Shown here piece by piece: positions 144 through 53,281 of a stretch of 64,000 nt of DNA. The DNA comes from a virus. Below the pieces are notes generated by a model, which made no database searches, was not told where the DNA came from, and saw only the letters and a program-made list of their open reading frames with translations. The number at the start of each line of letters is the position of its first letter. Within the stretch, counting starts at the first letter, position 1. The stretch lies in the UHGV virus genome UHGV-1374526; one strand, 5' to 3'. The position numbers were made by a program, and so were the translations under genes.

Positions 144-527
144 ATGTACAACGAAATTGCAATCGCCGCCCAAACTGTTGATTCCCACTTCTCCTATATG
201 GGATTAGAGGAATCAGCCGCTGACCTCCTGCGCCATCTTCTGTGGGAGATTGAAGAATACCGGGAAGCTGACGCGGAGGACCGCGTAAAGGAGGCAACCG
301 ACATCGCCATTCTCGCATTGCGCCTAGTAGCCGCTACGGGGCGCGATGAAGGTTTCTCCTTTGAGGATGGGATATTCCTCGCAAACGAAAAATGCCGGGA
401 AGTCGTGAACCGCATGAACCGTGCCGTGAAGATGTACAAGAAGGACAGAACCGCCGGAATTCCTATGAGCACCCCACAAGAATACTACGCGCAAGCGAAG
501 GAACAACTAAATACACCCAAACACTAA
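144..527 (+). CDS. MazG-like all-alpha NTP pyrophosphohydrolase (tentative)
   Basis: 127 aa. The acidic helix pair LLWEIEEYREADAED...VKEATDIAILALRLV resembles the MazG/HisE EExxE...D motif. Its stop overlaps the downstream start (TAATG). Confidence 0.4.
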   Translation: MYNEIAIAAQTVDSHFSYMGLEESAADLLRHLLWEIEEYREADAEDRVKEATDIAILALRLVAATGRDEGFSFEDGIFLANEKCREVVNRMNRAVKMYKKDRTAGIPMSTPQEYYAQAKEQLNTPKH

Positions 528-11214: not shown

Positions 11215-13485
11215 ATGCCGAAACCAGACGCAAATGCTCCCGTAGGTCCGGGGGTTATCGGCGTGGTTGACGAGAACGGAACCCTTCTCAAGCGGAGGGT
11301 TCCGACCGCCGACCAAGCCCGCGCCTTGCTCTACTTCTGCCTCACCGCTGACCAGCTATCCATGCAAGCGAGGACAGAGGCACAGGCAGAGCTGGACGGA
11401 CAACGCCCGTATGACCCAATGGCCCTTTCCGCAGTTGGTCAGAATTATCGAACCAACTACAACTTCCGCACGATGCGGATTGTTCGTGAAAAGGTGGCGG
11501 CTAGCCTCCGCGAAGTGTGGGATAACCCCGAACTTGTTTCGGTGCAGACCACCTTCGGAGATAACGCTCGTCGCCCCATTTATTCTGACATCCTTTCCAC
11601 CGAGGTGACGAAGATGGTCAAGTCCATGCCGGGATTCACTTCCATCATGACAGACCTTCTTCACAACTTCTCCTTCCACGGCTTCGGCCTTGCCTACTTT
11701 GAGGACCCTGACACTTGGTACTTCAAGGCAGGTAGTCTGAACGAGTTTGCCTTCGAGCGAAAGGTTAAGCCGGACAGTAGCACCCTTGAGGTTGTGTTTG
11801 CTACTCGTACCCTTCGTGCCCATGAACTCTACGATTTCATTCGTGACCCGCAGACCGCAAGGGAAGCTGGCTGGGATGTGGAAGAGGTCATGAAGGTGTT
11901 GAAGACCTGTAGTTACAATCAGACGGTACAGCCCCAGCGCATTTCTTGGGAGACCGAGAAGATGCTCAAAAACGGAGACTACACCCTGACCGACGTAATT
12001 GGAACCAGTATTCCGATTGCCCACATGTGGGTACGCGAATTCAACGGTACGGTTACTCACTCCATCTTCTTTGTCAACGGAAGCGGCGGCAATGGTCAGG
12101 ATGTGAAGCGTGACCAGAACCGCGATGTAGATGACACCAAGTTCCTCTACACCAAGGAAGGAGCCTACAACTCTATGGAAGAAGCGTTCGTCCTCTTCCC
12201 GCTGGGCAGTAGCACCAACGGCGACATCCATGCTCTCCGCGGATATGGGAATGACCTCCTGCCCCACACTCGTGTCATTGACAAGTTGATGAACCAAGCG
12301 ACGGACGCGGCGTTCCTCGGCATGGCGTTAAACGTCTCTGCCACCAATGAAACCTCCCGTCTCTCCGCAATGGTGAACCCGATGGGGGCCTATACCATTT
12401 TGGACCCGTCAACGCAAGTGGTTCCTAATCCCGTGCCGAATCTGCAACAGGTTGCCGGAACTCCCCTCGCATTCTTGCAGAACCAAATCCGGGAACGCTT
12501 GGGCGAGATTGACGTGAATGCTGATGGAGGCATGGGCCGCACCCAGCTGGAAGCTGAAATCCGTATGGGCAATGCGAGCAAGGTCAGCAATAACATCATG
12601 GATATGCTCTTGGAGCACATGACCATCCTTCTCCGTGAAATCGTTCGCCGTATCATCCGCAAGGACTACGATGAAGGGATTGGCGGGTTTAAGGAACGTG
12701 AACGCATGCTCCAACGTCTGGACGAAGCAGGTGTGCCAAGGGATGCCTTCTTCGCTATCGACCTTGACAGCGTTACCGCTCTTCCCCCTATCGGTGCGGG
12801 CAGTAAGGTTCGCCGCACGATGGCTCTCCGTCAGTGTCTCAACTACATGCAGTTCATGCCACGAGCTGGGCAGGAACGTCTCATCCGCATGGCCATTGCC
12901 AATGAAACGAATGGACGCACCGCGCAGTTGTTCATGCCGTTGAAGGATGACCCCAACCCGTCCGAAACCGTGGCCGCCTCTATCGCATCCATCCAGAACA
13001 ACCAGCTCATGGCAGGTCAGGAAGTTCCGGTTATGCCGAACGAGGACCACAGGACGCACGCGGAAGTGCATGCCAACTTCATCATGTCCATGCTACCGGA
13101 CGCACAGCTGGAACCCGAAGAGATGGCCCAGCTAGCTCAACCTCTACAGCTTCTGGTCGCCCAGTTGGCAGGACACATGGACTATTTGCAGGCCGCCAAG
13201 GAAGTTGTCCCCGAATTTGAACAGTACGAGAAACTGGTCAAGAGGTGCAACGAGGGTATTACCAACGGCATGCGGGCCTTGGAAGCGATGCAACAGAACG
13301 AAGAAGCGGCTCCCCAAGAAGGACCTACTCCTGAACAGATGAAAGCCGAAGCCGAAATTGAATTGAAGCGCATGAAGACGGAAGCTGAAATCCAGTTGGC
13401 TAAGGAAAAGCAGGATGCCGAGATTACTCGTAACGCCGTAGAAGCCAACGCTAAAGCGGCTCAATCGCTGGGAGGTGCACGATGA
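11215..13485 (+). CDS. portal protein (candidate)
   Basis: 756 aa, between terminase and scaffold/capsid genes. Coiled-coil acidic C-terminus. The assignment rests on size and synteny only. Confidence 0.5.
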   Translation: MPKPDANAPVGPGVIGVVDENGTLLKRRVPTADQARALLYFCLTADQLSMQARTEAQAELDGQRPYDPMALSAVGQNYRTNYNFRTMRIVREKVAASLREVWDNPELVSVQTTFGDNARRPIYSDILSTEVTKMVKSMPGFTSIMTDLLHNFSFHGFGLAYFEDPDTWYFKAGSLNEFAFERKVKPDSSTLEVVFATRTLRAHELYDFIRDPQTAREAGWDVEEVMKVLKTCSYNQTVQPQRISWETEKMLKNGDYTLTDVIGTSIPIAHMWVREFNGTVTHSIFFVNGSGGNGQDVKRDQNRDVDDTKFLYTKEGAYNSMEEAFVLFPLGSSTNGDIHALRGYGNDLLPHTRVIDKLMNQATDAAFLGMALNVSATNETSRLSAMVNPMGAYTILDPSTQVVPNPVPNLQQVAGTPLAFLQNQIRERLGEIDVNADGGMGRTQLEAEIRMGNASKVSNNIMDMLLEHMTILLREIVRRIIRKDYDEGIGGFKERERMLQRLDEAGVPRDAFFAIDLDSVTALPPIGAGSKVRRTMALRQCLNYMQFMPRAGQERLIRMAIANETNGRTAQLFMPLKDDPNPSETVAASIASIQNNQLMAGQEVPVMPNEDHRTHAEVHANFIMSMLPDAQLEPEEMAQLAQPLQLLVAQLAGHMDYLQAAKEVVPEFEQYEKLVKRCNEGITNGMRALEAMQQNEEAAPQEGPTPEQMKAEAEIELKRMKTEAEIQLAKEKQDAEITRNAVEANAKAAQSLGGAR

Positions 13486-13806: not shown

Positions 13807-15024
13807 ATGGACAACGTAAATATTCCCGCAGTAGCGGAGGGCATCATAGATGGTGCTATTCACAACGACATACATAACATTTTCGAACAGACCCTGTTCG
13901 CCCCGGATTCCACGGATTCCACTCAACCCTCCAATCCCGCTAACCCCACGGCTCCCATTGAATCCCCGGATGGTACGGTAGTCATGCCAGATGCTGGGCC
14001 TCGCATCGCGGATGATGAAGTAGTCAATACCACGGGAACCCCGGTTCCCCCGGATGACACGGAAACCGAGGAAACCGAGGAAGAACAGAACGAAGAGGGG
14101 GAAAACGAAGAGGAAGAAAACGAAGAGGAAGAAAACGAAGAAGGGAAGAAGGAAGAACAGAACAACGGTCCTAAGGAACAGAAAGCGAGCAAGGCCGCGA
14201 GCAAGGCATTCGCTGAAATGCGCGTCCAGTTGAGGGGCGCGAAGAAAGAAATCGCGGACTTGAAGGCCAAGTTGGAAGAAGCGGGTAAATCCTCTCCCAA
14301 CAATGAAGAGCTTGAATCTCTGCGAGAAATTGTACGCGGCTATGCCTTCACCGCAACCGAAGAATACAAGACCAATGTAACTGCCCCGTACAATAAGGCT
14401 AACGCCAAACTTGCAGAGATTGCCCGCGCCTCTGGTGCATCTCTGGACATGGACAAGCTGAATGAAGTTGCCCTTAATCCTGACCTCGACGAGTACGACC
14501 GGGAAGAAGCGTATGAGGCCATTGGGAAGGAACTGGGCATCAGCGATTCTGCCGTGTTCAAATTTGTCCGCATGGCTAAGGTCCGCGACGCGGCCATTGT
14601 CGCCCACGGAAACTATCAGGCCGAAGCCGACAAGTATGTGGAAGAGTTGAAGGCCAGCCGCGGCGGCAAATCCGAAGGTGCAACCTACACCGTCAACCTC
14701 GACAACTACACGTTGGAAGCGATGAAGGAACGCGCCAAGGAACTGGGCATGACCACGGAGATTACCGAAGAGAATGTGAAGCATGCCCGCCATCTTGCTC
14801 ACAAGATAAATAATGGCTCCTTCATGGACGGCGCACTGGCCGAACTCATGGTGAAGGAACTGGCAGATGCTCGCGCGACAATCGAGGCTCTCAACGTGAA
14901 GGTGGCCAAACTTCGCAAGGCCCGCCCCTCCGCTAACAGTGGTAGCTCCAAAGCTCCGGAGACCCAGCCACCCGCCGGGCCGACCGCAGTCGGGGACATT
15001 ATTGGTAGTGCCTTCGGATTATGA
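13807..15024 (+). CDS. scaffolding protein (candidate)
   Basis: 405 aa, highly acidic (EEENEEEENEE repeat), coiled-coil-like. Lies directly upstream of the capsid candidate. Confidence 0.5.
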   Translation: MDNVNIPAVAEGIIDGAIHNDIHNIFEQTLFAPDSTDSTQPSNPANPTAPIESPDGTVVMPDAGPRIADDEVVNTTGTPVPPDDTETEETEEEQNEEGENEEEENEEEENEEGKKEEQNNGPKEQKASKAASKAFAEMRVQLRGAKKEIADLKAKLEEAGKSSPNNEELESLREIVRGYAFTATEEYKTNVTAPYNKANAKLAEIARASGASLDMDKLNEVALNPDLDEYDREEAYEAIGKELGISDSAVFKFVRMAKVRDAAIVAHGNYQAEADKYVEELKASRGGKSEGATYTVNLDNYTLEAMKERAKELGMTTEITEENVKHARHLAHKINNGSFMDGALAELMVKELADARATIEALNVKVAKLRKARPSANSGSSKAPETQPPAGPTAVGDIIGSAFGL

Positions 15025-15236: not shown

Positions 15237-16493
15237 ATGGCTACTTCTCCTAACGATATTCAGGCCCAAGAATTGAAGCTGGTCACGATGACCAACCTTC
15301 TTAACGCCAACATGTTCAGCACCTTTGCTCGTACTTCTCCGTGGAACTCCCAGATGATTATGACGGGAGAATGGACTGACGGTGTTGGTGATTCCGGGCG
15401 CATCGCAACCTTCGGTGCTACGGACCCCCGTGCCGAATGGATGAACATTAACCTCGCTTCCACCTCCAACCAGATTCCGATTACGGTAAATGATACTGGG
15501 GCTACGGAATACTCCTACAGCCGCTTCATCACGAGGCTTTCCTCCCAGAAACTGGACGTACTCCGTATGCGTCAGTCTTGGCAGGCTAAGCAACAGGCCG
15601 AGAATGCGGTGAAGCAGTTGGTCCGTGCCGTCGGTAATACTTGGTCTCGCTTCTATCGTCAGAGCTACATCAACATCGCCAGCTACAAACTCATCCCCAC
15701 GAAGGCGGGTGTTGTTGGTCTCGATGTCGTGAGCAACGATATTAACTCCATGCCGGAAGTTAAGCCCGAAGCCGCTCTGAACGACGACCTGATGAACCAA
15801 GCTTGGCAGTTGCTCATCAATGAAGGTGCTGGCGAATCTGCCGCTCTGATGGACCAAGGTTCCCCTGTCTTCTTGGCTTACACCTCGAAGGACACCGTGG
15901 ACTTCATCCTGCGTCACAACGAAGTTATCCGCAAGGACTGGAACTTCGCAGAGGCCGCGGAAGGCAAGGATGCTACCCTCCTGCGTCAGCTGGGCGTGAA
16001 GTGGACGTACAAGGGCTTTACCTACATCGTGGACAACATGAACCCCCGCTACACCTTCGACGACACCAAGCCGACTGGTCAGAAGTGGGTGGAAGTTCCC
16101 CAGTATATCAAGGTGGAAACGACTGTTGGTAATCGCTATGTGCCGAACCCCGCGTACATGAACGCCCCCTACGAAGATACGATTATCTTTGTGAAGGACG
16201 TGTACAAGTCCCTCGTTCCTCGTCCGGTGTCTGCCTACGGTCAGGCCAAGTGGGACCCCGTGACTTACGCTGGTGAGCTGGTTTGGGTGAACAACAAGGA
16301 CAACGGCGATAACTACATGGGTACGCAGGGCATGTTCATCGCGACGCTTTCTGCCGCTCCGATGCCTGTCTTCCCGCGTCACGGTGTAGTCATCCGACAC
16401 ATTCGCACGACCGCTGGCCGCGAACTCGTTGGTGCTGACGGCAAGCCCGTTGGCTCTCTGGTAAGTACCCCCGCGGCAGTGCCGGGCCTCTAA
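15237..16493 (+). CDS. major capsid protein (candidate)
   Basis: 418 aa, follows the scaffold gene and is followed by a strong intrinsic terminator. No sequence motif was recognised; the call is by synteny. Confidence 0.5.
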   Translation: MATSPNDIQAQELKLVTMTNLLNANMFSTFARTSPWNSQMIMTGEWTDGVGDSGRIATFGATDPRAEWMNINLASTSNQIPITVNDTGATEYSYSRFITRLSSQKLDVLRMRQSWQAKQQAENAVKQLVRAVGNTWSRFYRQSYINIASYKLIPTKAGVVGLDVVSNDINSMPEVKPEAALNDDLMNQAWQLLINEGAGESAALMDQGSPVFLAYTSKDTVDFILRHNEVIRKDWNFAEAAEGKDATLLRQLGVKWTYKGFTYIVDNMNPRYTFDDTKPTGQKWVEVPQYIKVETTVGNRYVPNPAYMNAPYEDTIIFVKDVYKSLVPRPVSAYGQAKWDPVTYAGELVWVNNKDNGDNYMGTQGMFIATLSAAPMPVFPRHGVVIRHIRTTAGRELVGADGKPVGSLVSTPAAVPGL

Positions 16494-17905: not shown

Positions 17906-20053
17906 ATGGCACGTAAACGTTCTTCTGAAATCCAAATTGAAAATTACGTCAACGGCTCCCCTATTACGCCGGGCGTAACCTATAAGCTGGGCGATGCCGA
18001 CACGCACACCGCGTGGCTTCTTGCTTCCAGTTCTCCCTGTCTCTTCAAACTTTCCGCTACCGCTCCTACCGACGAACTGTGGTCCAACATTACGCCGGAA
18101 CAGTTCATCATCAATGGTTCGGTCGCGGGACAGGTGATTGAGATTGAATCCCCCGACGGTAAGTACTTCGTCGTCCCTACTAACGCACAGGACAAGAACG
18201 CCTCCGTCGAAAGTGCACACGCGACGATTGCACTTCACCCGCTGGGGTTCGACTACGACCAAGAGTATCAGGCCCTCCCGCTGGATGGTGATGGTCCTGT
18301 CTCCGAAGGTTTCTACAAAATCTCCAACCTCGAAAGCGGTAAGCTCTACTCTATCAATGTGCATCCTGACTTGGGCGGCTTGATGGAAACGAAGCCTAAT
18401 CCGGAATTCAGCTATGCGCTCTTTAGCGTAGGAGCCGACAACAATCCTAAGGCATTCCTCGCTGGTGGTAAGACTACTGACCAGCTGGTCTTTGTGGCAA
18501 CTGAAACTTCTGCAATTCTTTCTCTCGGCAGTACGATTGAAGAAGCGGGCTACTTTGTCTCCATCAGAAATTTTAGTTTAGGCTCCGGTGAGGGTGGCGG
18601 TTCTGGCACTGGCTTTGACCCAGCTAGTGACCAGACAATCTCCGGGGCATGGAGTTTCACCAACACGGCGGGATTGGTTCTCGGAAACGAAGTTCCTTTA
18701 GTTCTCGGACAAGGGGATGACGCGGTGAAAATCCACGGCGATGGTAACGGAGCCGCAGTCATTGAGGGGACGAACGCTTCCCACATGGACGTTGCGATTC
18801 CTGTCAAGTTCCAAGGCTCTACCACTTTCGATGACAGCGTTTCCTTCGTCGCCGCTACTGGCGAGAAGATGAAGTGCATCCTCTTCGGCAAGGAGAGCGG
18901 TCCTACGCGAGCCATACTTTACGAAGAATCCAACGGTTTCCTCTCCATAACTGACCCCAATAACGTCAACGATAAGACATTGACCATCGATGGGGCTGGG
19001 GACTTGTGGGTCTACAGAAATGAAAACCATAACGGGGTAGTTACGTTCAACTCCCAAACCCGTATGCACGGCACTATTGACGTGGGCGGGGTTATGACGT
19101 TCCGCAAAACTCCCAATGCCAACAGCGGCATCAACATCCCGCTGGCCGCGGGCGCACCGACGAATACGGGGGCGGTTAATCGCTTTTATGCGTTGGGATT
19201 GGCTAGCGAGGCGAACATCCTGACCACTAATGCTTTCCTCAATACGACGACCATTACCAAGACAGGGACTTCGACGGTGACACAAACAGTTCCCTACCAT
19301 TTGGCTAGCATTAAGGTTCCACCGGGAACTCATTCGACCATTCAGGCGAACTTTAAGGTGAGCAACCCTCAATGGAATTATTCCAGTTTCGCAGGGTTCT
19401 CTTTCGTTTGGCGTGCTACTGGTGCGGCAAAGTTGACCTTTGGTATCGGACGTGGCGCGAAGACGGTTCGTTCCGACCTTTCCATAGATTCTTACAGTAT
19501 TATCCCGGCAAACGATTTGGCGTACAATCATGGCGAAATTCTGGATATTACCTTTGACAACGTCAGAGATACCCAGCGCAACGGTTATACGGTGCGGGTG
19601 CGTGAGATTTACGCACTCGATTCCACGGCGGGCTGGCAGGTGAAAACCACCACCAGCTTCATCCCGGCCAGTCAAAACGAACCCGTCCCTTGGACGATTG
19701 CCAAGGTTATTTACCAGCAGAACGCTTCGGCCAATATTGCCCTGTATGATAATCTGGGTGCACTCTGGCTCATGCTCACCGGAGGTCAGGCAAATAATCT
19801 GTATAAAATTGCCACCTGCCGTGGCGTCAGTACTTTTGAGACTGGTGTCGGCATTTCCAGCTGGGTGACTGATGTGGTGAATAATTCGACTGGCAACATT
19901 TCTGTTTATGCAGGGAACGGAGAGTACACCTATTACCAGCCGGGAGGCACAAACCCGGTCTTTTATGGACTGGAAGCAATGGCCGTCGATGCCATTGAAT
20001 CCGAGGAAGCCACGGATTTTGTGGATATTAACAACCCCATTGAACAGGCATGA
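17906..20053 (+). CDS. tail fibre / receptor-binding-like structural protein (candidate)
   Basis: 715 aa, Gly/Thr/Asn/Ser-rich beta composition with an internal GSGEGGGSGTG linker. Confidence 0.4.
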   Translation: MARKRSSEIQIENYVNGSPITPGVTYKLGDADTHTAWLLASSSPCLFKLSATAPTDELWSNITPEQFIINGSVAGQVIEIESPDGKYFVVPTNAQDKNASVESAHATIALHPLGFDYDQEYQALPLDGDGPVSEGFYKISNLESGKLYSINVHPDLGGLMETKPNPEFSYALFSVGADNNPKAFLAGGKTTDQLVFVATETSAILSLGSTIEEAGYFVSIRNFSLGSGEGGGSGTGFDPASDQTISGAWSFTNTAGLVLGNEVPLVLGQGDDAVKIHGDGNGAAVIEGTNASHMDVAIPVKFQGSTTFDDSVSFVAATGEKMKCILFGKESGPTRAILYEESNGFLSITDPNNVNDKTLTIDGAGDLWVYRNENHNGVVTFNSQTRMHGTIDVGGVMTFRKTPNANSGINIPLAAGAPTNTGAVNRFYALGLASEANILTTNAFLNTTTITKTGTSTVTQTVPYHLASIKVPPGTHSTIQANFKVSNPQWNYSSFAGFSFVWRATGAAKLTFGIGRGAKTVRSDLSIDSYSIIPANDLAYNHGEILDITFDNVRDTQRNGYTVRVREIYALDSTAGWQVKTTTSFIPASQNEPVPWTIAKVIYQQNASANIALYDNLGALWLMLTGGQANNLYKIATCRGVSTFETGVGISSWVTDVVNNSTGNISVYAGNGEYTYYQPGGTNPVFYGLEAMAVDAIESEEATDFVDINNPIEQA

Positions 20054-20502: not shown

Positions 20503-20536
20503 CCCCGGAGGCTAACCCCCTCCGGGGATTTTTATT
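20503..20536 (+). terminator. intrinsic terminator
   Basis: Stem ccccggagg / cctccgggg followed by atttttatt. Confidence 0.65.
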
Positions 20537-20581
20537 AAAATAATTTCTTGACAAATAATAAAATTATTATATGGTGGTGGC

Positions 20582-21169
20582 ATGTCCAAGACATCAAACA
20601 CCAAACAGATAACCAAGATTGTTATTGACGAGGCCAATGGCTTGACACACGTTTATATGTCAGACCTTAGCCCGAAGATAGTTAAAGCCAATACCTCGGC
20701 CCCAACGAACATTCCTACCAAGAGCGAATTCTCTTTTCGCGATGAATCCGTAGAATCGCAAGCAGTAGTTGAGAAGGCCTTTGACGAAGTATTCCCGGAG
20801 GAAGATGGGCATCCTCAACTGTTCTGCCCAATCTGCGGTGGTCTATTGAGAGAAGCACGTCGCGGCAACTACGTGTTCGTAGAGTGTATGAGTTGCGAAT
20901 TAGCGGTGCTGGGAGATGATAGTGACGATTATGAAGAGGCGAAGGAAAAGGCATGGCTTACCGCCCGCCAGTTTATTGAAGAACTCCCTCCGCTTCTGCG
21001 TCTCCAACCCGGCGCCGAAATCCAGTACTACGACGGCATGTTCCATAGGCATACCGGAATCGTTGCAGGAAGAACCCGCGTCTCCATGCGCATCCTGTTG
21101 GAGGATGGGCGAAGCATTGACCCCAGCAGGATAGTTGAATGGCCGTGGGGAATGGAGCAAGCCGAGTAA
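20582..21169 (+). CDS. zinc-ribbon protein with C-terminal WPW domain
   Basis: CPICGG...CMSC zinc ribbon. C-terminus ...RIVEWPWGMEQAE. Paralogous to the next gene. Confidence 0.5.
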   Translation: MSKTSNTKQITKIVIDEANGLTHVYMSDLSPKIVKANTSAPTNIPTKSEFSFRDESVESQAVVEKAFDEVFPEEDGHPQLFCPICGGLLREARRGNYVFVECMSCELAVLGDDSDDYEEAKEKAWLTARQFIEELPPLLRLQPGAEIQYYDGMFHRHTGIVAGRTRVSMRILLEDGRSIDPSRIVEWPWGMEQAE

Positions 21170-21171
21170 CC

Positions 21172-21546
21172 ATGAAGGAGAGCAAAATGAAAACGCCTAA
21201 ATGCCCGGTGTGCGGAAATGAGATGCAGTTGCAATCTGATGAAGTATGTTCAGGGTATTACACACCATTATATTATTACGAGTGCATAGCATGTCCTCTT
21301 GCCACAACGCCAGCAGATACCGCAAAAGACGCCGAGAATCAGATAAAAGAGCTTATTTCCAAGTTCCCGCCTATCATGAGGGTCTGGCCCGAAGATACAG
21401 TAGTATGGAAAAATACTCCTGTCACGATTCTTGATAAGGACGTTCCGTGCGGAGAACTTCTGGTGATAAACTCGCAAGGACGCAAATTCCTCATACCTCA
21501 TCATGCTATTGAGAAATGGCCGTGGGAACTTGAAAGGGTAAACTAA
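21172..21546 (+). CDS. zinc-ribbon protein with C-terminal WPW domain (paralog)
   Basis: CPVCGN...CIAC. C-terminus ...AIEKWPWELERVN. The start is moved to the first ATG after the upstream stop. Confidence 0.45.
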   Translation: MKESKMKTPKCPVCGNEMQLQSDEVCSGYYTPLYYYECIACPLATTPADTAKDAENQIKELISKFPPIMRVWPEDTVVWKNTPVTILDKDVPCGELLVINSQGRKFLIPHHAIEKWPWELERVN

Positions 21547-22011: not shown

Positions 22012-22422
22012 ATGGAAAAGAATCAAATTAAACTCGGAATGATTGTCCGCGTCGACGGCGGCCCTTGCGGTCGCGTCGTGGAAATCGACAACGAACGTTC
22101 TTCCTACCCGTACAAGGTACGCTATTCGGGAGGATTAGCGGAGTGGGCCTCTGCTAACCAGATGGAAGAAATTCTAGATGCGCCAGAAGAATCTGTCCGC
22201 GCTGGTTGCACTAACGCCGCCAAACCCCGGCGACCGTTCAAGAGAGGGGATAGGGTACAATACGTTCCTCGCGGCTGGGTAAGCTATGATGAAGAGCCTA
22301 CGCCCTATCAGGAGTACGCGGTTTACGATGATGAAGACAGCGACGGCTGGGTAGCTATCGATGGAGTAACCGTCAACTACTTCAACACCGTTATGTTCTT
22401 TGACCTCAAACTAATCGATTAA
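22012..22422 (+). CDS. protein with two SH3/KOW-like small beta-barrel repeats
   Basis: GMIVRVDGGPCGRVVEID and GDRVQYVPRGW repeats. Related short motifs recur in the genes at 30997 and 31409. Confidence 0.45.
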   Translation: MEKNQIKLGMIVRVDGGPCGRVVEIDNERSSYPYKVRYSGGLAEWASANQMEEILDAPEESVRAGCTNAAKPRRPFKRGDRVQYVPRGWVSYDEEPTPYQEYAVYDDEDSDGWVAIDGVTVNYFNTVMFFDLKLID

Positions 22423-22427
22423 CCTCC

Positions 22428-22553
22428 ATGATTGCCTACCTCTTATTCATTATCTTCATCGTATGTCCCATGAGCATCGCCGCTCTCGGAATGGTCCTCG
22501 CGTATTACGCTGGGCTAAGGGCAGGTATGAAGCAGAAGGAGGAAGGAGTATGA
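22428..22553 (+). CDS. 41-aa single-TM micro-protein (not in ORF track)
   Basis: MIAYLLFIIFIVCPMSIAALGMVLAYYAGLRAGMKQKEEGV. Its stop overlaps the next start (ATGA). Confidence 0.4.
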   Translation: MIAYLLFIIFIVCPMSIAALGMVLAYYAGLRAGMKQKEEGV

Positions 22554-22681
22554 CACTCTTCCTCAATTTAATCCTTGCATTCTGTATCATAACGAGTACA
22601 TCTATCCTCGTAAGAATTCTATTCTTATTCCTACTAAATCCCAGCAAATACATTCACCATGACCACAACGATATTTGTTAG
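22550..22681 (+). CDS. 43-aa single-TM micro-protein
   Basis: MTLFLNLILAFCIITSTSILVRILFLFLLNPSKYIHHDHNDIC. The ORF-track 22463 version adds an Arg-rich extension that overlaps the upstream micro-ORF. Confidence 0.4.
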   Translation: MTLFLNLILAFCIITSTSILVRILFLFLLNPSKYIHHDHNDIC

Positions 22682-22784
22682 TATTACTGACATCCTTGCA
22701 TGGATAGGAATTACTCTGTGCATCCTCGCCCTATTCACCCTGTGGGTAATCGAAACCATTAAGAAGCATATCAAAAGAAAATGA
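22659..22784 (+). CDS. 41-aa single-TM micro-protein (not in ORF track)
   Basis: MTTTIFVSITDILAWIGITLCILALFTLWVIETIKKHIKRK. Its stop overlaps the ATG of the Cys-rich gene (ATGA). Confidence 0.35.
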   Translation: MTTTIFVSITDILAWIGITLCILALFTLWVIETIKKHIKRK

Positions 22785-23806
22785 ACGACGACGAACCAAA
22801 TTGTTGGACCTGCGCATACAGCAACTTCCCCGAAACCGCGGAACCCTGTGCATCCTGTGACATGTACTTTAGCCACTTTGAATCCAGTGAACCCACGGAA
22901 TCCACGGACACCGCGGCAAGCGAGGATGCACGGAGGTGCTCCCTCTGCAAATTCCGTGATATCCCGATAGTGCAATCCCCCTGCCAGAGGTGTGCTATCA
23001 CTCCCGGACTTCCCTGCTTCACCTCCGATACCAACAAATTGGTAGAGATGGAGAAGTTGAAGCGGGAAGAAGCAAAGCGGAGGGAAGCCAAGATGGCTGG
23101 TCCTACCTGTCTGGCATGTAAACATAAGGGGGTATCTATCCTAGAGGAACCCTGCATCTCCTGCAACGGCTATCAGAATTATACCCCAGATGAATCTGCG
23201 CCATGTGCCGAAGGTACGGACGAGAACGATGATGTCATCGAACCGTGCAATACTTGCACTCACCGGGATAACCTCCGTTGCAATCCTCCATGCTCTCATT
23301 GCCGACAGGAGCGGGGAATTGAGTACCCGGAATATGAAGAGGATAAAGGGGATGAAGAGGATGTCCCCTCCCCCTGCTCCACATGCAAGTACGGGGACTT
23401 GCCCGGAACCGTGGGACCCTGTGCTTCCTGTTTCGACGAGGGGCTGGACCATCCCCTGAACTACGAGGAAGCCACGGAATCCGGGGACGAGGAATCCAAG
23501 GACGAGGATTCCGGGGTCACAGAAATTGTGCCGAAGCATATTGTTGATATGTTTGTCGAAAGAGTGGGGCAAGAGGTGCGACGGCATTTTGAAGCCCACA
23601 ATGCTCATCCACGTCCTTGCCCCTACTGCGGAGAAATCCCGGAGGTCGTGGGGGAAACCATCTATCCCGGAGAGGAACATTGCTATGTCGTCTGCAACGG
23701 GGCCAAGCTTCTTCCTCATAGCATTTCCATTCATGGCCTCACTCGCGAAGAAGCGGTAGCCCGCTGGAATAGCTTCGTATTAACTATGAAGTCCCAAGAA
23801 AAATGA
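22781..23806 (+). CDS. Cys-rich protein with five tandem C-x2-C...P-C-x-S/R-C zinc-finger-like modules
   Basis: CWTC..PCASC; CSLC..PCQRC; CLAC..PCISC; CNTC..PCSHC; CSTC..PCASC; plus C-terminal CPYC...C..C. Acidic P/T/E/S linkers. Confidence 0.55.
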   Translation: MNDDEPNCWTCAYSNFPETAEPCASCDMYFSHFESSEPTESTDTAASEDARRCSLCKFRDIPIVQSPCQRCAITPGLPCFTSDTNKLVEMEKLKREEAKRREAKMAGPTCLACKHKGVSILEEPCISCNGYQNYTPDESAPCAEGTDENDDVIEPCNTCTHRDNLRCNPPCSHCRQERGIEYPEYEEDKGDEEDVPSPCSTCKYGDLPGTVGPCASCFDEGLDHPLNYEEATESGDEESKDEDSGVTEIVPKHIVDMFVERVGQEVRRHFEAHNAHPRPCPYCGEIPEVVGETIYPGEEHCYVVCNGAKLLPHSISIHGLTREEAVARWNSFVLTMKSQEK

Positions 23807-23903
23807 ACGCTCACTGGATAACCATTAGCGGGGGAGGATTCGTCCTCCCCATTAACTCCATACTAATCGCGGAGGGAGACCTCGCCGCATAACATTTCAT
23901 CTC

Positions 23904-24134
23904 ATGAACCTTCCATACATTGGACAAATCAAAGGGCTTCGCCAATATCTTATTGACGAGCGCATTCTCTCTCCTATCGAAGTTGGTCTAGCCTCCGACA
24001 CAGAGCTACTCGACACAATCATTAAACGAGGATATTCCTTCGTCGTACCCTACAATGGTAGCTATACGACTGGGGATGAAATCCTTCTAATCCCTAATGA
24101 CGCATTGAACCATGCAGTCAAATTCTCACGCTAA
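23904..24134 (+). CDS. hypothetical small protein
   Basis: 76-aa ORF downstream of a GC hairpin (23830-23850). Confidence 0.4.
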   Translation: MNLPYIGQIKGLRQYLIDERILSPIEVGLASDTELLDTIIKRGYSFVVPYNGSYTTGDEILLIPNDALNHAVKFSR

Positions 24135-24225: not shown

Positions 24226-24698
24226 AGAAGAACAGTAGAGGACTAATCGTCCATCCCGGATTGAAACATTCACGGAGGCCACGGCATAGTACTCCCCCGG
24301 TAAAGAACGTGCCACGGGGCTACATTGCCACTGGGGAGATTGCCGATAAAATCGGGAGAAGCTCCGTATGGGTAATTCACGCCCTGAACCGATTGAAGGT
24401 CAAACACGTTCGTTGTGGGCATACCATGTACTGGGAAGGGGAAGGAGCCAATGAATATATTCAGATGCAGGTCAAAGGTCTATATGACAGCATCCCGGAA
24501 GGGTACGTTGATGTAGCTACCGCATTGGAATCTACGGGCTTGAAGTCTCCGGCGTATCTGACCACCCTATTCAAGCGGGGCAAAGTTCAACGTGTACGGT
24601 ATCGTGATGATAGCGACCCTCGCGGTCGTAGGACACGGTTTGCGTATAATTTGCTTGACCTCCTTTCTCATTTGGGTTTAGATAGCTCTGACGTATGA
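24222..24698 (+). CDS. HTH DNA-binding protein (AlpA/Xis-like, tentative)
   Basis: Segment YIATGEIADKIGRSSVWVIHALNRLKVKHVRCGHTMYW resembles excisionase/AlpA-type HTH. Confidence 0.35.
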   Translation: MKKNSRGLIVHPGLKHSRRPRHSTPPVKNVPRGYIATGEIADKIGRSSVWVIHALNRLKVKHVRCGHTMYWEGEGANEYIQMQVKGLYDSIPEGYVDVATALESTGLKSPAYLTTLFKRGKVQRVRYRDDSDPRGRRTRFAYNLLDLLSHLGLDSSDV

Positions 24699-25048
24699 GA
24701 ACGACCTACTCTACAACCAGAACCATACAGAAGGGCCAGAGCAATCAGCGAGCCTTGCTCGGTCTCCTTCTGAATATTGACCTCCTTGACTTCTCCCTCA
24801 CCGTTGATAACATACGTGTCCTTCTGTACATGCACGCCAATGGATTTGAGAGTGAGCATAGTAACCCGGAAATTAGCAGGGGTACTCGCATCCAGATATC
24901 ATCTCTCTACTATGTCCTGCGCAAGCTGGAAGAAAAAGGGTATATTGAATACGAGGGAGTGAGGGGGTCGAGGAAACAAACTAAAAGTAAACTAACTCCG
25001 AAAGGTATCACTTTCTGTCGTGACATCTTCCGGCCACAAACAATCTAA
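24695..25048 (+). CDS. winged-helix transcriptional regulator (PadR/MarR-like)
   Basis: LYYVLRKLEEKGYIEYEGVRGSRKQTKSKLTPKGITF is a classic wHTH recognition helix plus wing. Confidence 0.5.
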   Translation: MRTTYSTTRTIQKGQSNQRALLGLLLNIDLLDFSLTVDNIRVLLYMHANGFESEHSNPEISRGTRIQISSLYYVLRKLEEKGYIEYEGVRGSRKQTKSKLTPKGITFCRDIFRPQTI

Positions 25049-33035: not shown

Positions 33036-33544
33036 AACTATTCAATCTGTTCCGAAAAAGCCACGAGCAGGAACAACTCGAAAACGAGTTGACCCAGAAT
33101 CTTAATCAATTACAGGAAAGCATCCGTGCGTGTACTGAAAAACTCCGCTCAAGGAATCGGTTCTATGCCTCCCTTCCTATTGGTCGCGAGGGTGAGCTGA
33201 AACTGCCCAGAAACCAATGGGCCTATTTTTTACGGGGGAAAGTAGGAATTCGTTATGACGGAGAAACCCTTACCTCTTCGGTTACACAGGTTAAAACTCG
33301 TGAAGAAGTTCAACTGCCAAGAATTATTGACGCGGAGAGAAGTCATAAATTACTTGTCATACGAGGATATGTTATTGACAGGAGAACAAACCGCACCTAT
33401 TATCAGGGCGAGACAGTAAGTTTTCAGCGGGGAGAACCAATGCAATTAACGTTGAACGGGCATATTAGCATGATGTGGACACCCCCGCTTCCCGATGCAA
33501 TTATGCCGTTCTATCAAACCAATATACATGGCCTTGATTCCTAA
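33032..33544 (+). CDS. hypothetical protein
   Basis: 170 aa. ATGA overlap with the upstream gene. Confidence 0.4.
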   Translation: MKLFNLFRKSHEQEQLENELTQNLNQLQESIRACTEKLRSRNRFYASLPIGREGELKLPRNQWAYFLRGKVGIRYDGETLTSSVTQVKTREEVQLPRIIDAERSHKLLVIRGYVIDRRTNRTYYQGETVSFQRGEPMQLTLNGHISMMWTPPLPDAIMPFYQTNIHGLDS

Positions 33545-36410
33545 CACTCCGGCCTCCAACCCACAGCCTCCGACGATACCCATTGGAACCACGGATTCCT
33601 CGTGGCGCAATGGGTTCAGTCCTGACAGGCCAATGGGTGAGCCGATAATTAACTTTCCCACTCCTGTGGTAAAGAACGTGATGTTCTTCGTTGAGAGGAT
33701 TGCCAAGAATCCCAGCGAGATTACCATTGAATTGGGAACGCCGTTCGTACCCACCGCAGGTACGACCTTCCTCCCGTTTATGCGGGATGCAGTTCTCGTG
33801 CATGTCGAACCCGTCAATGAGGCGGCGAGACAGCACGTTTATCGTTTCTACTACATGGTCCCGCCGGAACAGCAGTTCCGATATAACATTCAGGACATGA
33901 AGAAAATCCGTGACGGCTATACGTTGAAAGATACTGCCGCTACGGGTAAGTTCATGGGTCCGGATGCAGACACGGAAGAGTTGAAGGACTTCTACGAGAT
34001 TACACGGGAATGGGTGGAACCCACGGATTCCGCGTATGCCCCGCTCCCCCTTGGCTCGTTTGACCCCAGCAACGAAAAGCTTGACCCTGACTTCTATGAC
34101 CAGCATTTCTACACGGCATACGATGCCCAGCTGGTATATGAAGAAGTAGCCCAGTTCGAAGAGGAACACCTGCGCAAGTACTTTCGTAAGGTCATCCGTG
34201 TGTATAAAACCCTGCCGGGACCTGTGGTTAAAGAGTTCGTCCCTTATAACATTTGGCAGAAGGGAGATACGGTGTGGGATGAAGGTGGTCCGGGAACGAA
34301 CCAGCCCGAATCTGAATGGGTGGCGCAGCCTGCAATTAAGTTATCAAGAGAGGTCTGGGCCGCGCCGCTTTGGCCCGTCGATGGTGGAGGGAAGGAACCG
34401 GGTCAGGCCCGCATTCCTCACATGCCCCTCCTTGAACTGGACAATAAGCCCGTTAGTGCTGGCTGGGACAAGGGCAGTTATCCGAGTACGCAGATGTACA
34501 CCCTTGTATCTATGTACAAACGGAACAGTAACATTGCGGAGAAAGAGGAACAGAACAGCCTCTCCGGTAATTGTTGTAACCCTGATTCCCGTTTTGTCCG
34601 GTGCATCAACACAACCGTGACGACTAGCCAGTCCGTTGACTGGACAGCAAACGGCGATGTCCCGGCGATTGACCCCCCGGACCCCAGCGAGAACTGTAGC
34701 CAATGGCGTGTAGATTCCTCTGTGGTAGTACATGAAGGGTACTCTCATAAGGAAACGCGAAAGAGTTGCACCACCTACGACCAGATTGATGAATTCTGGG
34801 AATCCTCATTCGATAGGATAACCAATCAGGTCTATCCTGTACTGCGGAAGATTGTACATAATCCGAGCACTGACTTCGATACTGATTGGCAGAATGAAGG
34901 ATTCACCAAATACACGGATGCCGTGGGCAATACCTACTATGGCCGTAAACTGGAATCCCCGGAATCCGTGGCTCCCATTACTATCCCGGACTCCGCTTGG
35001 GAGAAGATAGGCTACAACCTTGCGGACTTCACCGTAGAAGAGGAACCGACGTTTAATACCAAGATGCTCACCGGACTGTCCATGATTAACGGATGGAACG
35101 ACCCAGCCTATCCCCAGTTCTCTGACTACTTCGCTATGCTTGGTAGCTTCACCTCCGACAATAAGGGAGTCCCACGTGGTTCTCTCTACAACGTCCGGTT
35201 TAAGGGTCAACGCTGGTGGCAACTCTGGATTCAAAACGAGATGCCCACAGAAATGTCTCCCGGAACTATCACCGCCACTCCCTTCTATCATGCTCCCAAT
35301 CCTGACGGCCCTTGGTTCTCACAGGATGGGGTTTATAAGGTAAGGGGCGAAATGATGATTAACGATGTCCTCTATGGCGAGGGAGTTACGAGCAATGTCT
35401 GGACATTCCCCGTAGGTTTCATGGATGGTACGCAGATATATAAGCGGAAGGCCTATAACCCTGAAATGAAATTTACCACAGGGGCATTACCTACAGGTAT
35501 TGGGAAGGCGTTCACCACGGTGGAGAACGGAGAATTACTTCTCACCTGCTGGGTACTGAACAGCAATAAGGTTGCCATCAATGGGGAGATTCCCATCATG
35601 ATGAATAGTACGAAGATATTCGACATCAATGTATCTAGCTCTGATGCTCCCAGTACCACGCCGGAACCGAACATAAGCACAACTACCGTGGCTAAGGCAA
35701 AGTATACCGTTGGCAATTATGTATTAGACGCGCAGGTAGTGAATAACCTCAACATCACTTACAACCGGAATAAGTTCCCATTCTTCCAATTCACCATCAC
35801 GCTCTGCTCTCTCCGCGGCAATACGTTCAAGGTCACGCAGGGGGATAAGATTCAACGCGTCGTCCTGCGCCAATGGGTGAACCCCTGTTACGCCGTAGAT
35901 AGTTACATGCAGATTCCGGGAATCGGGTACTACAAAAAATATACCACGACGATGAACTACAGTTTCCCTGCCGTGTTCGGTTCGGTTAGTTGGGTTCCGT
36001 GGAATACGAGGCCCGACCTTTCTGGCAAGAATGCTGGACAGTACTTCCCGCAGACCCGGATGATGAGGGACAGTTACTCCGGCCCCTGCACCGCCGTGGT
36101 AGAGGAAGCCTTCTCCCCTGACGGAACATGGCCTAAAGGCTGGGGCCTTGGGACGTCGGTACAGTTCACGACGAACAGTGGATATTTCTCTTCACCGCTT
36201 TGCGATTACCGTCTGCCCGCATGCCTCCACGGCCCGCTGGCTATAACCGTAGTCATTGGCAATCAGGACGCCAAGTGGCTTCCCGGCGCGTTTAATACGG
36301 CCTTTCCGGGGACTACCCACACAGATTGGAAACCCGTGACCTCCTATTACGCATCCCCGTGGAACGGGGGCATGATGTGCAAGAAAGTAACCATTTATCC
36401 ACCCAGTTAA
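33528..36410 (+). CDS. large virion-associated protein (tail/baseplate candidate)
   Basis: About 961 aa, W/Y/N/T-rich beta composition. Start moved to the ATG at 33528 to limit overlap. Confidence 0.45.
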   Translation: MALIPNTPASNPQPPTIPIGTTDSSWRNGFSPDRPMGEPIINFPTPVVKNVMFFVERIAKNPSEITIELGTPFVPTAGTTFLPFMRDAVLVHVEPVNEAARQHVYRFYYMVPPEQQFRYNIQDMKKIRDGYTLKDTAATGKFMGPDADTEELKDFYEITREWVEPTDSAYAPLPLGSFDPSNEKLDPDFYDQHFYTAYDAQLVYEEVAQFEEEHLRKYFRKVIRVYKTLPGPVVKEFVPYNIWQKGDTVWDEGGPGTNQPESEWVAQPAIKLSREVWAAPLWPVDGGGKEPGQARIPHMPLLELDNKPVSAGWDKGSYPSTQMYTLVSMYKRNSNIAEKEEQNSLSGNCCNPDSRFVRCINTTVTTSQSVDWTANGDVPAIDPPDPSENCSQWRVDSSVVVHEGYSHKETRKSCTTYDQIDEFWESSFDRITNQVYPVLRKIVHNPSTDFDTDWQNEGFTKYTDAVGNTYYGRKLESPESVAPITIPDSAWEKIGYNLADFTVEEEPTFNTKMLTGLSMINGWNDPAYPQFSDYFAMLGSFTSDNKGVPRGSLYNVRFKGQRWWQLWIQNEMPTEMSPGTITATPFYHAPNPDGPWFSQDGVYKVRGEMMINDVLYGEGVTSNVWTFPVGFMDGTQIYKRKAYNPEMKFTTGALPTGIGKAFTTVENGELLLTCWVLNSNKVAINGEIPIMMNSTKIFDINVSSSDAPSTTPEPNISTTTVAKAKYTVGNYVLDAQVVNNLNITYNRNKFPFFQFTITLCSLRGNTFKVTQGDKIQRVVLRQWVNPCYAVDSYMQIPGIGYYKKYTTTMNYSFPAVFGSVSWVPWNTRPDLSGKNAGQYFPQTRMMRDSYSGPCTAVVEEAFSPDGTWPKGWGLGTSVQFTTNSGYFSSPLCDYRLPACLHGPLAITVVIGNQDAKWLPGAFNTAFPGTTHTDWKPVTSYYASPWNGGMMCKKVTIYPPS

Positions 36411-38394: not shown

Positions 38395-41300
38395 ATGGCT
38401 ATTGACTTTAGTACCGCCAATATGTCCGACTTCACTCCGAAGTCGGGAAGCAGTATTGCACGTGAACAGCGAGCCGCAGAAAGGCACGCCGCGTGGCAAG
38501 AGACGCAAGCGCAGAAACAGCAGGACCGAGAACAGAAAGCACTGGACCGCGAGCAAAGGTTAGCGGAAAAGAAACAGACCCGTGCCGAGAAGGGAGCGAC
38601 GGCGACCGCAGACTATGACACCTTCCTCTTTAAGTCTGTTGATGACTTTGCGGAGAAACAGAAAAAGGATGCGGAACACGCAAATAATGTAGAATGGCAA
38701 AATAAATCCCGCGCCCATACGGAACAAGAATGGAAAACCGCCGAGGAAAATAAAGCCCTCGACATCTTGAACAAAGGAAACCGTGGGTACAGCTTTGAGG
38801 GAATCGACTACATGAAAGACTATGTAGACCGCGGGGAAGATGCGCTGGTCGATTTGAAGGCCGCTTCCCGCGGTGATAGCGAGGCCATTAAGAAGCTTGC
38901 CAACAATACGGGACTTACCGTTGTGTCTTCTTCCGAGCTTACGCCTACGCACCCCACCTTCTTATCCCGCTCTGGCTTCGGAAGTGGAGAGGACGGGAAC
39001 CCCGTCGTAACGGAAAAGTTCCTCGCCATTGCCGCGGACAGAAACCGTAACGCAAAGGCGGTTGCCAAAGGCATTGCCAACACAATGGAAAAGGCCCGGA
39101 AGGATTACCTCAACTCGAATCTAGATGTTGGAACGGGTAAACCTACGGCGCAAGCCATCGAGACCGCACCTATTGCTTACACCGCAGAAGAAATAGAAAG
39201 CGTCATCAATACGATTAGGCGCGAAGACATTGGCAACTATCGTGCCGCTAAGGCTCTTTACGACAAACACCGCTCTTCTTCGACGGAAGGCGTGCAGAAG
39301 AAAACCCCCAGCCAAACGAGCGTGGGGGAGCTTGGCGTTGGCGAATTCTCTGATTCAGCACCTTCATTTACTGGGAATGTTTTTGCTGAACTCGCCAACC
39401 TTTCCAAGTCTCCCAGCAAAATGTTCCAGCTTGTCCGCGACTACGGGGATTACCTTTCCCGGAGTACGGAAGATATTGAATCCCCGGAATCTGCTACAGC
39501 GGATGCGAAACAACTCCATACAGACCAAGCAAAACTCATTTCAAAAAAAGAAAAACCTGTTGAGGATAGGATTCGTGAACAGATAGAAACAGCCGACAAA
39601 ATCGTAAGACGCCTCGAAGAGGACTACACTGGCCTTCCCTATCTCGAACTTCGCGACGCGCTTCTCAATCCAGAGGCCGCGGCCTCTGCCCTTCTGTCTT
39701 TAGTCCCCGGTGCTGACATGGACGCAATACGTGCACGGGCAAAGGTCATTACCGAGGAAGTTCGCCGCCAGAAGGACCGCCCTCTGACCGTCGAAAACCC
39801 CGAACAGATTGGCATGAGTGAGGCTATACTGGAAGCCGTGGCCACAAGGTTTCCGGGGGTTCCAAAATCTGCCCTGCGCCAAGCGGGAGTAACCAAACTG
39901 ATTCAGGACTATACCGCCAAAGCCACGCCGAAAGGCACTCTCATGGATGCAGTCAAAGGCGCACTGGCTAACTACCGAAGCACGGCGGGACAAATTGCGG
40001 ACGTACTTACCTTCCAACCGGATAATAGTGTGGGTAAGTACGCCGACCCAATGAGCTTGATGGAATGGAGGAAGGGAACGAGGCGTGGCTCATGGTGGTA
40101 TGGCATGCCGGGCGGCCCGTCCTTTGAAGTCGGACCGGAGAGGTTGAAGGAATACATGGCCCAGTACCATATTGAAAGTACTCGCGATGCCCTCAACTCC
40201 CTCTCCCATGCCGCACGTATGGGTGACTTGGGCGTTGGCCGTGGCAGTCTCTTTGCGTACAATCCGCACACCAAGGAAGTTGATACGAACGCCACGCTCG
40301 AACTGAATCCCAATGCTCTCTACAATGATAAGCTGATGGACCAGAGCATTGAGGCTCTCCGTGCTAGTGGCGCGGACGAGAAGCTTATCAATCGCACCAT
40401 TGAGAAGTTCCAGAACCTCCGCAAGAAATCCGCACAGGAACTTGTGAAGGACAACATGGCATTGGACGAGACGCTGGGGACGCTTCGCGATACGTGGCTT
40501 GGCTCCGGCTTGCAGTTCAACCCTGTCTTGACTGAATCCATGAAGCATCTGGACAAGTACCTTTCCTTCAAGAATTTCTACAACGAACAGAAGGAAGCGG
40601 GCAAGAGCGACGAGGACATCCTCTCCGCATGGCAGGAGAAAGGGCAAGCCACCTTCGATTCTGTTCTCCGTGGGTTACAGATAGGTACACACAAGGCAAT
40701 CGACCTTGGGACAAGTACCGCCTATGGTGCTCTTCTCTTTGCACAGAATGCAGTTGGCAGTCGTGCGGCGATGGAACATACCCGCACCCTCTGGGACCAG
40801 CTGAACAAAAAACAGGAAGCAGAAGCCGAGTTGGTTCGAGGCAATATCCTTGCGGACTATACTGCGGAAATCGCTAACCTCGGCTACCAAATGGTAGCAA
40901 CCGCGGGGGCTGGTAAAGTTGGTGGCCTCGCTGGCCGTGCACTGACACGTACCGCGCTCAATAAATTCATGAAGGCAACGGCTAACGTCGTAGCGAAGCG
41001 GGCCGAAGCTCTTGTCCCTGCCGCCCGTCCGGGATTGGCGGGACGTTTGAGTGGAACTATTCAGCGCAACCTCGACAACCTTGCGGCGTTGAACCTCGAA
41101 CGGGCAGGAGCCGGAGCCGGGGTAAATCTTAGCATCATCTCGCAGGTTGCACCGAATGCTTACTCCGACATCTTCTATACCATTTATGATAGGGAGATGG
41201 AAGGGAAGGAACCGACTGCCGAGAACACGAACAGGGCACAGAGCATTGCCAACATGCGTGCTCTCTTTGGTGCGGCTCTCGTATCTACTGGTAGTACTCT

Positions 41301-53271: not shown

Positions 53272-53281
53272 GTTTTTAGGA

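Follow-up and report, generated by a model that had tools for sequence, protein, structure and literature searches.

A phage protein carrying an array of five four-cysteine modules and a candidate Lar-like C-terminal domain

What might be the role of a phage protein in which one short arrangement of four cysteines recurs five times, in a form that curated domain libraries do not recognise? The question is raised by an open reading frame (ORF) of 341 amino acids (aa) at positions 22781-23806 of the UHGV virus genome UHGV-1374526, analysed here as a stretch of 64,000 nucleotides (nt) that we call the window. Judged by its sequence, the encoded protein is closest in its probable mode of action to accessory proteins of the Lar type, to which a module array has been added: the C-terminal part is of an already known kind, in divergent form, and the module itself is an unrecognised family. 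The function we favour, while rating it somewhat short of probable, is that of an accessory protein serving host takeover or counteracting restriction, whose Lar-like effector would be combined with a cassette-shuffled, multivalent array of zinc modules.

The five modules and their family

The gene and the parts of its product are listed below, with the independent E-value (i-E) that each module obtains with an independent module hidden Markov model (HMM).

22781..23806, plus strand: module-array gene (341 aa), with an ATG start, five modules, acidic linkers and a predicted Lar-like C-terminal domain
22802..22858, plus strand: module A, aa 8-26, CWTCAYSNFPETAEPCASC, i-E 1.5e-10
22937..22993, plus strand: module B, aa 53-71, CSLCKFRDIPIVQSPCQRC, i-E 6.6e-9
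23030..23095, plus strand: charged helical spacer, rich in K/E/R, that separates modules B and C, aa 84-105, a helix predicted by AlphaFold2 (AF2) with modest confidence
23108..23164, plus strand: module C, aa 110-128, CLACKHKGVSILEEPCISC, i-E 2.1e-12
23246..23302, plus strand: module D, aa 156-174, CNTCTHRDNLRCNPPCSHC, i-E 1.8e-6
23375..23431, plus strand: module E, aa 199-217, CSTCKYGDLPGTVGPCASC, i-E 9.5e-12
23528..23803, plus strand: C-terminal folded domain, aa 250-341, predicted by AF2 as a helix, three strands and a helix
23609..23773, plus strand: putative Lar/RalR-like zinc-ribbon core, aa 277-331, with CPYCG, C301-x3-C305 and an EEAVARWN helix, from profiles and BLASTP

An earlier note on this DNA, made from the sequence alone, had described the product as an array of five cysteine modules, and the analysis bears this out while revising its dimensions. 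The pattern C-x2-C-x11-C-x2-C is exact in all five modules, with a proline directly before the third cysteine in each; the knuckle spacing, given as a range of 9-14 residues, is instead fixed at 11, and a start-to-start distance of 43-57 aa takes the place of the proposed repeat length of some 35-40 aa. When the residues were shuffled 200,000 times with all 27 cysteines of the protein kept, 1,984 shuffles contained one match to the pattern, 18 contained two and none contained three or more. A six-frame scan of the 64-kb window returned only these five modules, and a module HMM built without the query family identified five domains in the protein (i-E 2e-12 to 2e-6), with a score of 113 bits for the protein as a whole. 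Three cysteines (C79, C142 and C167) fall outside the module pattern.

The second residue after the second cysteine is [HYF] in all five copies, and an aromatic residue is found 1-11 residues after the fourth cysteine in every one of them. Among the other signature residues, the lysine directly after the second cysteine is present in three modules, the serine before the fourth cysteine in three, and the glutamate before the proline in two (A and C). Module C is the copy nearest to the general consensus and module D, with an additional cysteine inside its loop, the most divergent. At the DNA level only modules A and E keep an appreciable likeness (76% identity over 51 nt), and Tandem Repeats Finder detected only short repeats of 9-15 nt, located in the linkers; a recent tandem DNA duplication was hence discarded, and the modules are old at this level. 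The spacer between modules B and C varies in length in the homologue alignment, through insertions and deletions of KREEA units.

The acidic character ascribed earlier to the linkers was also substantiated. The whole protein has an isoelectric point (pI) of 4.6, with 66 D+E against 32 K+R and a net charge of about -34, and aa 1-240 contain 50 D+E against 22 K+R. The protein is organised as beads on a string, with five four-cysteine mini-domains of about 32 aa joined by acidic linkers that are probably flexible.

When a 41-position HMM of the module was run exhaustively against 1.84 billion representative proteins, 446 of them matched at E<=1e-3, and 24 did so at E<=1e-10. The module is therefore not an oddity of this gene, and the search for the repeat unit in metagenomic phage proteins that the earlier note had suggested was productive. 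Module-bearing proteins span 42-811 aa and 1-11 copies; the family counts that follow come mostly from the best 145 of the 446. The x11 spacing is shared by 327 of the 389 CxxC-x8-14-CxxC matches in these 145 proteins, a proline precedes the third cysteine in 96% across the family, and the consensus reads [KR]-x-C-x-[TN]-C-[KR]-[HYF]-x7-[ED]-E-P-C-x-S-C, followed by an aromatic residue, often in W-E-P. Two of the 145 profile matches (P0179 and P0213) were set aside as low-complexity false positives. Taken together, these sequence comparisons indicate that the module is a large, widespread and unnamed phage-borne domain family.

Examples in cultured phages were located by tblastn with one family member (P0122) in the Clostridium tyrobutyricum phages vB_CtyS-FA70 and FA67, which encode a two-module hypothetical protein; tblastn searches of GenBank phages with the query, P0130 and the P0132 array returned nothing. 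Five unrelated metagenomic members (P0137, P0148, P0153, P0168 and P0230) have the module fused to a recurrent, apparently unannotated domain ('...GPATIVFWKDGTKTVVK...FDPEKGLAMAI.KK..G'). By eye, P0135, P0230, P0250 and P0148, all from other phages, end in an SH3-like 'KVGDKVKLK...' segment; phmmer returned no link between these SH3-like tails and genes of the window.

Neither Pfam, even at E<=1 and with its rubredoxin and DnaJ families included, nor NCBIfam produced a match for aa 1-276, in agreement with the earlier impression that the array is unlike known zinc-finger families. Matches to rubredoxin-like or DnaJ-type repeat families, which that note had named as evidence to the contrary, were sought and none was obtained for the query. 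Pfam and NCBIfam scans of the 145 relatives gave no family for the module itself, and DnaJ_CXXCXGXG matched two of them weakly (best E 2.9e-5). Sequence profile searches of the PDB with the full-length and module alignments yielded no matches at E<=10, and a literature search for the spacing motif retrieved nothing relevant.

With the DnaJ cysteine-rich domain (PF00684) the module has in common the paired CxxC knuckles, repetition within one chain and, presumably, the binding of one metal, but it differs in having no CXXCXGXG motif, no glycine after the knuckles and a fixed x11 spacing. It also resembles rubredoxin in its paired CxxC knuckles, presumably chelating one metal. In rubredoxin the knuckles have the form CxxCG ... 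CPxCG and lie about 29 residues apart, whereas the module has no CPxCG and a spacing of 11 residues. Short zinc ribbons share the Cys4 knuckle pair, and the module is set apart from all three groups by its conserved K-[HY] and E-P. The only catalogued relative is PHROG 19852 (phrog_19852; 53 positions, function unknown), which shares the module spacing and signature residues and matches the query at E 0.001 in two stretches, as well as 33 of the 145 representative module proteins (best E 1.9e-17); Pfam, NCBIfam and the PDB contain no entry for the module.

The abundance of cysteine (27 in 341 aa, with five Cys4 sites that include a Pro-Cys knuckle) and the metagenome source of a phage whose host is probably an anaerobe would suit a metal-handling or redox protein, whether as an Fe(Cys)4 carrier akin to rubredoxin or as a Zn/Fe buffer akin to metallothionein. 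We consider this highly improbable, given that no rubredoxin or other metal-protein family was matched at E<=1, that the x11 spacing and the motifs are unlike those of rubredoxin, and that the fusion partners of the module are not redox enzymes.

The C-terminal domain

The full-length protein was modelled with AF2 from a 30-sequence alignment, without metal, and the predicted local distance difference test (pLDDT) score was averaged in 10-residue blocks. Block means were 66-88 from residue 251 on versus 29-62 for residues 1-250, and most of the N-terminal 250 aa fell below 50, the exception being the charged helix 84-105. The C-terminal fold comprises a helix (252-275), three strands (288-295, 298-305 and 315-319) and a second helix (322-340; block means 71-88), and is the sole part of the protein for which the prediction is confident. 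Since AF2 did not fold the modules, the zinc binding proposed for them is read from the sequence. Foldseek searches with a model of the module returned no matches. With the full model, the PDB gave only an insignificant alpha-beta3-alpha resemblance to double-stranded RNA-binding domains (E 0.05), which was treated as a topology coincidence, and BFVD gave an entry named 'Restriction alleviation protein, Lar', likewise insignificant (E 0.096).

A sixth, degenerate cluster had been noted earlier at the C-terminus. A cysteine cluster does exist there (C280-x2-C283-x17-C301-x3-C305), but it is not a degenerate copy of the module. Three models and an alignment to the Lar protein of the Rac prophage lead us to identify the domain as a divergent Lar relative: aa 277-331 match Pfam PF14354 Lar_restr_allev (E 0.019, model positions 5-55 of 58), TIGR03655 anti_R_Lar (E 6.2e-4, positions 3-53 of 55) and PHROG 599 'Lar-like restriction alleviation protein' (E 5.6e-4), and BLASTP aligns the domain with Rac prophage Lar/RalR at 34% identity over 53 aa (pairwise E 2e-6). 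The Lar sequence used was checked, being 100% identical to an ORF of a Rac-like phage and 96.9% identical to annotated ralR. A precomputed PF14354 match is found on about a third of the homologues.

The alignment pairs PCPYCG with PCPFCG, CNG with CNG and EEAVARWN with EKEALERWN, and the shared elements across the C-terminal 55 aa can be summarised as a PCP[FY]CG knuckle, CNG and an E-[EA]-A-[VL]-x-RWN helix. CPYCG, the first knuckle, does not vary among homologues. The second differs, since Lar has CNGC where the present protein has CNGA; an alternative, invariant cysteine lies four residues upstream (C301-x3-C305), and four cysteines are still present. In addition, Lar is a single domain of 64 aa, to which the protein studied here adds a preceding 24-residue helix and a 250-aa N-terminal array. 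On sequence grounds, the C-terminal domain is accordingly best placed in the Lar/RalR zinc-ribbon family, as a divergent member.

King and Murray are said to have found in 1995 that Lar alleviates EcoKI restriction and enhances modification. In Rac-like phage records, the ORF verified here as Lar is labelled 'endodeoxyribonuclease toxin'. RalR, which is the same protein as Lar and the closest characterised relative of the domain, has been reported as a non-specific endonuclease (DNase) toxin (PMC4041452). These reports raise the possibility of a RalR-type DNase or host-shutoff toxin, whose Lar-like domain would cleave host DNA while the N-terminal array regulates or targets it. Such a role seems unlikely to us: the homology is weak (34% over 53 aa, under the family cut-offs), one presumed zinc ligand differs, the Lar-like domain has no recognisable nuclease motif, and the three Lar-like paralogues encoded by this one phage would be odd for a toxin.

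Module partners, variation and genomic setting

Most members of the module family are standalone proteins with 1-3 modules, or are fused to DUF3310 or other nucleotide-metabolism domains. Fusion partners among the 145 representatives include DUF3310, of the T7 gp1.7 nucleotide-kinase family (10 proteins), dATP/dGTP diphosphohydrolase (2), DUF4406/deoxyribosyltransferase-like domains (2-3), DUF6378 (2) and DUF551, and among these representatives a fusion to a Lar-like domain was seen in this phage lineage only. T7 gp1.7 itself has no module (0.2 bits), and was discarded as its origin. Three neighbourhoods were sampled. In the first, a six-module DUF3310 protein (P0132) occupies the gene-1.7 slot of a T7-like phage, in the region from RNA polymerase to endonuclease I/primase-helicase, and its gene lies downstream of ArdA; in the second, the gene for an 11-module protein lies between dUTPase and ThyX/deoxynucleoside monophosphate (dNMP) kinase, with ribonucleotide reductase in the neighbourhood; the third is a run of small genes. 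DUF3310 proteins with arrays, such as P0132, have the same layout as the protein studied here (an N-terminal module array, acidic/Thr-rich linkers and a small C-terminal phage effector domain), differing in that the C-terminal domain is DUF3310 and not Lar-like.

This company of nucleotide-directed partners, together with the gene-1.7 slot and the position between dUTPase and ThyX/dNMP kinase, would agree with a tethering or nucleic-acid-targeting array, in which the modules bind DNA, RNA or proteins of the replisome or of deoxynucleoside triphosphate synthesis and localise the fused domain, with no evasion of defence implied. The conserved K/R and H/Y beside the first knuckle, and the reported action of RalR on DNA (PMC4041452), can be read in the same sense. 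Several observations speak against it: the array and its linkers are strongly acidic, as the composition of aa 1-240 indicates, the conserved E-E before the second knuckle is unfavourable for direct nucleic-acid binding, the tolerance of 2-6 copies in one lineage would be unusual for a stoichiometric replisome component, and the replication genes of the window, at 392-5005, do not adjoin the module gene. On balance we regard tethering as possible but doubtful, and retain the accessory, anti-restriction role as the preferred one.

Homologues of the gene in the phage lineage form 120 clusters at 90% identity and carry 2-6 modules. Counted by the raw pattern, five modules are present in 36 clusters, four in 34, three in 25, two in 11 and six in 10; apparent forms with no module (P0118 and P0119) or with one were excluded as natural forms, being frameshifted gene calls. 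The modules of the lineage, classified into types A-H, are found in at least 35 orders, of which ABCDE predominates; ACDE, ABCGDE, ABCFDF and CFE are further examples. This number of orders indicates that whole modules are deleted, duplicated and swapped as cassettes. In 30 IMG/VR loci the gene has 19 distinct lengths (224-405 aa), versus 1-7 for neighbouring genes. The gain, loss and swapping of modules is suggestive of a fast-evolving host-takeover or anti-defence accessory protein. The ratio of nonsynonymous to synonymous substitution rates (dN/dS) is 0.45-0.59, alike in module cores, linkers and C-terminal domain, and most neighbours have values of 0.14-0.36; the gene is real and under selection, and its constraint is relaxed relative to neighbours.

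Copy-number variation of the module is not peculiar to this lineage, as lengths also vary in the P0124 cluster of DUF3310 fusions, where a single cluster at 90% identity contains proteins of 350, 384, 437 and 460 aa. Copies of the gene with frameshifts or internal deletions were observed in P0110, P0117-P0119, P0125 and P0189 and in loci L030 and L031, some of which read module B in the +1 frame, and P0197 joins module B to the C-terminal portion of a 76-aa gene that lies downstream (window 23904-24134). These broken or rearranged copies may be assembly errors or may reflect genuine decay and rearrangement.

The phage of the window encodes a DNA polymerase, a helicase, an exonuclease and a terminase. 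GenBank phages include no close relative of it, its relatives being only metagenome assemblies and IMG/VR contigs, the longest of about 70 kb, and no relatives were found in the 185,579 species genomes of GTDB, so that prophages do not reveal a host. Shine-Dalgarno-like motifs precede 2 of the 42 plus-strand gene starts in the window, the G+C content is about 50%, and no tRNA genes were found. Some bacteria, such as the Bacteroidota, do not use Shine-Dalgarno sequences, and the scarcity of the motif together with the G+C content suggests a host of this type.

The module gene lies in a same-strand block of small genes, directly preceded by a terminator and a promoter-like site. The relevant elements are as follows.

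20503-20527, plus strand: strong intrinsic-terminator-like hairpin, 9 pairs of which 8 are G-C, then the ATTTTTATTA T-run
20548-20575, plus strand: sigma-70-like promoter match TTGACA-16-TATGGT, 10/12 matches
20582-21169, plus strand: Lar-like gene 1, first in the small-gene block, PF14354 E 7e-4
21139-21546, plus strand: Lar-like gene 2, second in the small-gene block, PF14354 E 0.014
22428-22553 and 22659-22784, plus strand: a pair of 41-aa ORFs, each with one hydrophobic segment of membrane-like character, called in independent assemblies
23831..23850, plus strand: 8-bp G+C-rich hairpin, GGGGAGGA-TTCG-TCCTCCCC, 25 nt after the module-gene stop and inside a 29-aa ORF

Three Lar-like genes are thus present within 3.2 kb. 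The two that open the block are mutual paralogues (phmmer E about 2e-5) with a shared C-terminal part ending in W-P-W, and the second C-x2-C is canonical in both. Both vary among relatives: the identity of the first falls as low as 47%, and the second was present in 8 of the 30 loci only. Translational coupling links the module gene to its neighbours on both sides: its ATG overlaps the stop of the 41-aa ORF at 22659-22784, and its own stop overlaps the start of the 29-aa ORF at 23803-23892, in both cases as ATGA.

The earlier note had placed a GC tetraloop hairpin after the gene at 23830-23850. A hairpin with a G+C-rich stem is present; its coordinates are 23831-23850, its loop is TTCG, and it has no U-tract. 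The region 23800-23900 folds at -33.4 kcal/mol (z -4.0), 27 of 35 related loci have the identical hairpin sequence, and in one variant (GGGGAA...TTCCCC) a compensatory G-C to A-T double change keeps the pairing. Its interpretation as a canonical intrinsic terminator was rejected, as it lacks the U-tract and was not called as a terminator. A second hairpin follows it at about 23869-23888.

The gene has large unannotated genes, which may be structural, on either side of it and on the same strand, and some phages inject early-acting anti-restriction proteins (PMC5512222). This could suggest a virion-associated or injected protein, packaged and delivered with the DNA in the manner of internal or ejection proteins. 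We give this very little credence, inasmuch as no structural or ejection-protein family was matched, the gene is one of a block of small genes preceded by a terminator and a promoter-like site of its own, and truncated and frameshifted copies are frequent in relatives.

Almost nothing in the structural module of this phage could be annotated. The large genes at 11215-13485, 13807-15024, 15237-16493, 17906-20053 and 33495-36410 have no Pfam or PHROG match, and an ORF of 3,231 aa at 38395-48090 (plus strand) has no Pfam match at E<=1e-3. Elsewhere in the window, a minus-strand arm begins near 49.2 kb and encodes a NAD-dependent DNA ligase with adenylation, OB and BRCT domains (51301-53346, minus strand), a 117-aa protein (24695-25048, plus strand) has weak winged-helix/MarR-type matches (E 0.003-0.1), and a 136-aa protein (22012-22422, plus strand) has weak SH3/Tudor-like matches.

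Candidate functions of the array

The accessory, anti-restriction reading is put forward because of the layout of the protein (exact x11 spacing in every module, confident folding of the C-terminal domain only, low pI), the Lar homology, the fast module variation and the opening of the gene block with two Lar-like genes, and because modules elsewhere are fused to, or lie beside, early and DNA-metabolism genes, once with ArdA. Under this proposal, each module would chelate one Zn2+ through its four cysteines and form a small, independent bead. The protein would be non-essential, acting as a dispensable accessory or host-takeover factor against a host DNA-directed defence, for which restriction-modification is the best guess. 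The Lar-like domain would serve as the effector or docking part, and the variable array could provide multivalent and rapidly re-tunable protein contacts. The multivalent nucleic-acid- or protein-binding scaffold suggested by the earlier note remains plausible in the light of the sequence, direct nucleic-acid binding being disfavoured because of the strong negative charge.

The acidic linkers may also act as a DNA-like polyanion. Ocr and ArdA are strongly acidic proteins of phages and mobile elements that act early against type I restriction-modification (PMC5512222), and in the T7-like phage the early region that encodes the module protein also encodes ArdA. The likeness lies in strong acidity and is a functional analogy only, since Ocr and ArdA mimic DNA as rigid proteins, lack zinc sites and have no sequence or fold similarity to the 341-aa protein; that this protein might mimic DNA is pure conjecture.

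A number of results weigh against the anti-restriction reading. The Lar-family scores of the C-terminal domain are under the curated cut-offs (15.6 versus 28.6 bits for PF14354, 20.0 versus 39.6 bits for TIGR03655), the position of Lar's fourth cysteine is occupied by alanine, and the annotation of the Lar family derives from one studied protein with two differing reported activities. AF2 left the modules unfolded in the full-length model (pLDDT <50), and a single module, modelled without metal from 32 diverse module sequences, reached a pLDDT of 61. The dN/dS ratio is below 1 in every region of the gene and so does not demonstrate positive selection. The nucleotide-metabolism bias of the fusion partners suits tethering as well as anti-defence. 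Lastly, a PADLOC search with the query returned no families at E<=1, in a library that models defence and not anti-defence systems.

A more specific and distinctly speculative version, which we hold to be rather unlikely, is that the module constitutes a new phage-specific zinc mini-domain operating as an exchangeable recognition bead. Each of the types A-H would bind a different host target, and cassette shuffling would re-tune the Lar-like or gp1.7-like effector to which the array is attached. Restriction-modification subunits or other immune sensors would then be candidate targets, and the array would represent a modular, combinatorial mechanism of counter-defence that has so far not been described.

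The module is a compact Cys4 domain with rigid spacing, present in at least about 440 protein clusters (at the 50% identity level) of uncultivated phages and not covered by curated domain libraries, and its definition would give an annotation to a recurring component of phage dark matter. The gene described here ties this module to the Lar-like restriction-alleviation fold, and the 2-6 copies and at least 35 orders seen in a single lineage amount to a natural mutagenesis series for module binding. If the anti-defence reading is true, a modular, multivalent type would be added to the known counter-defence proteins; if the tethering reading is true, the array would exemplify a common way for phages to localise nucleotide-metabolism enzymes.

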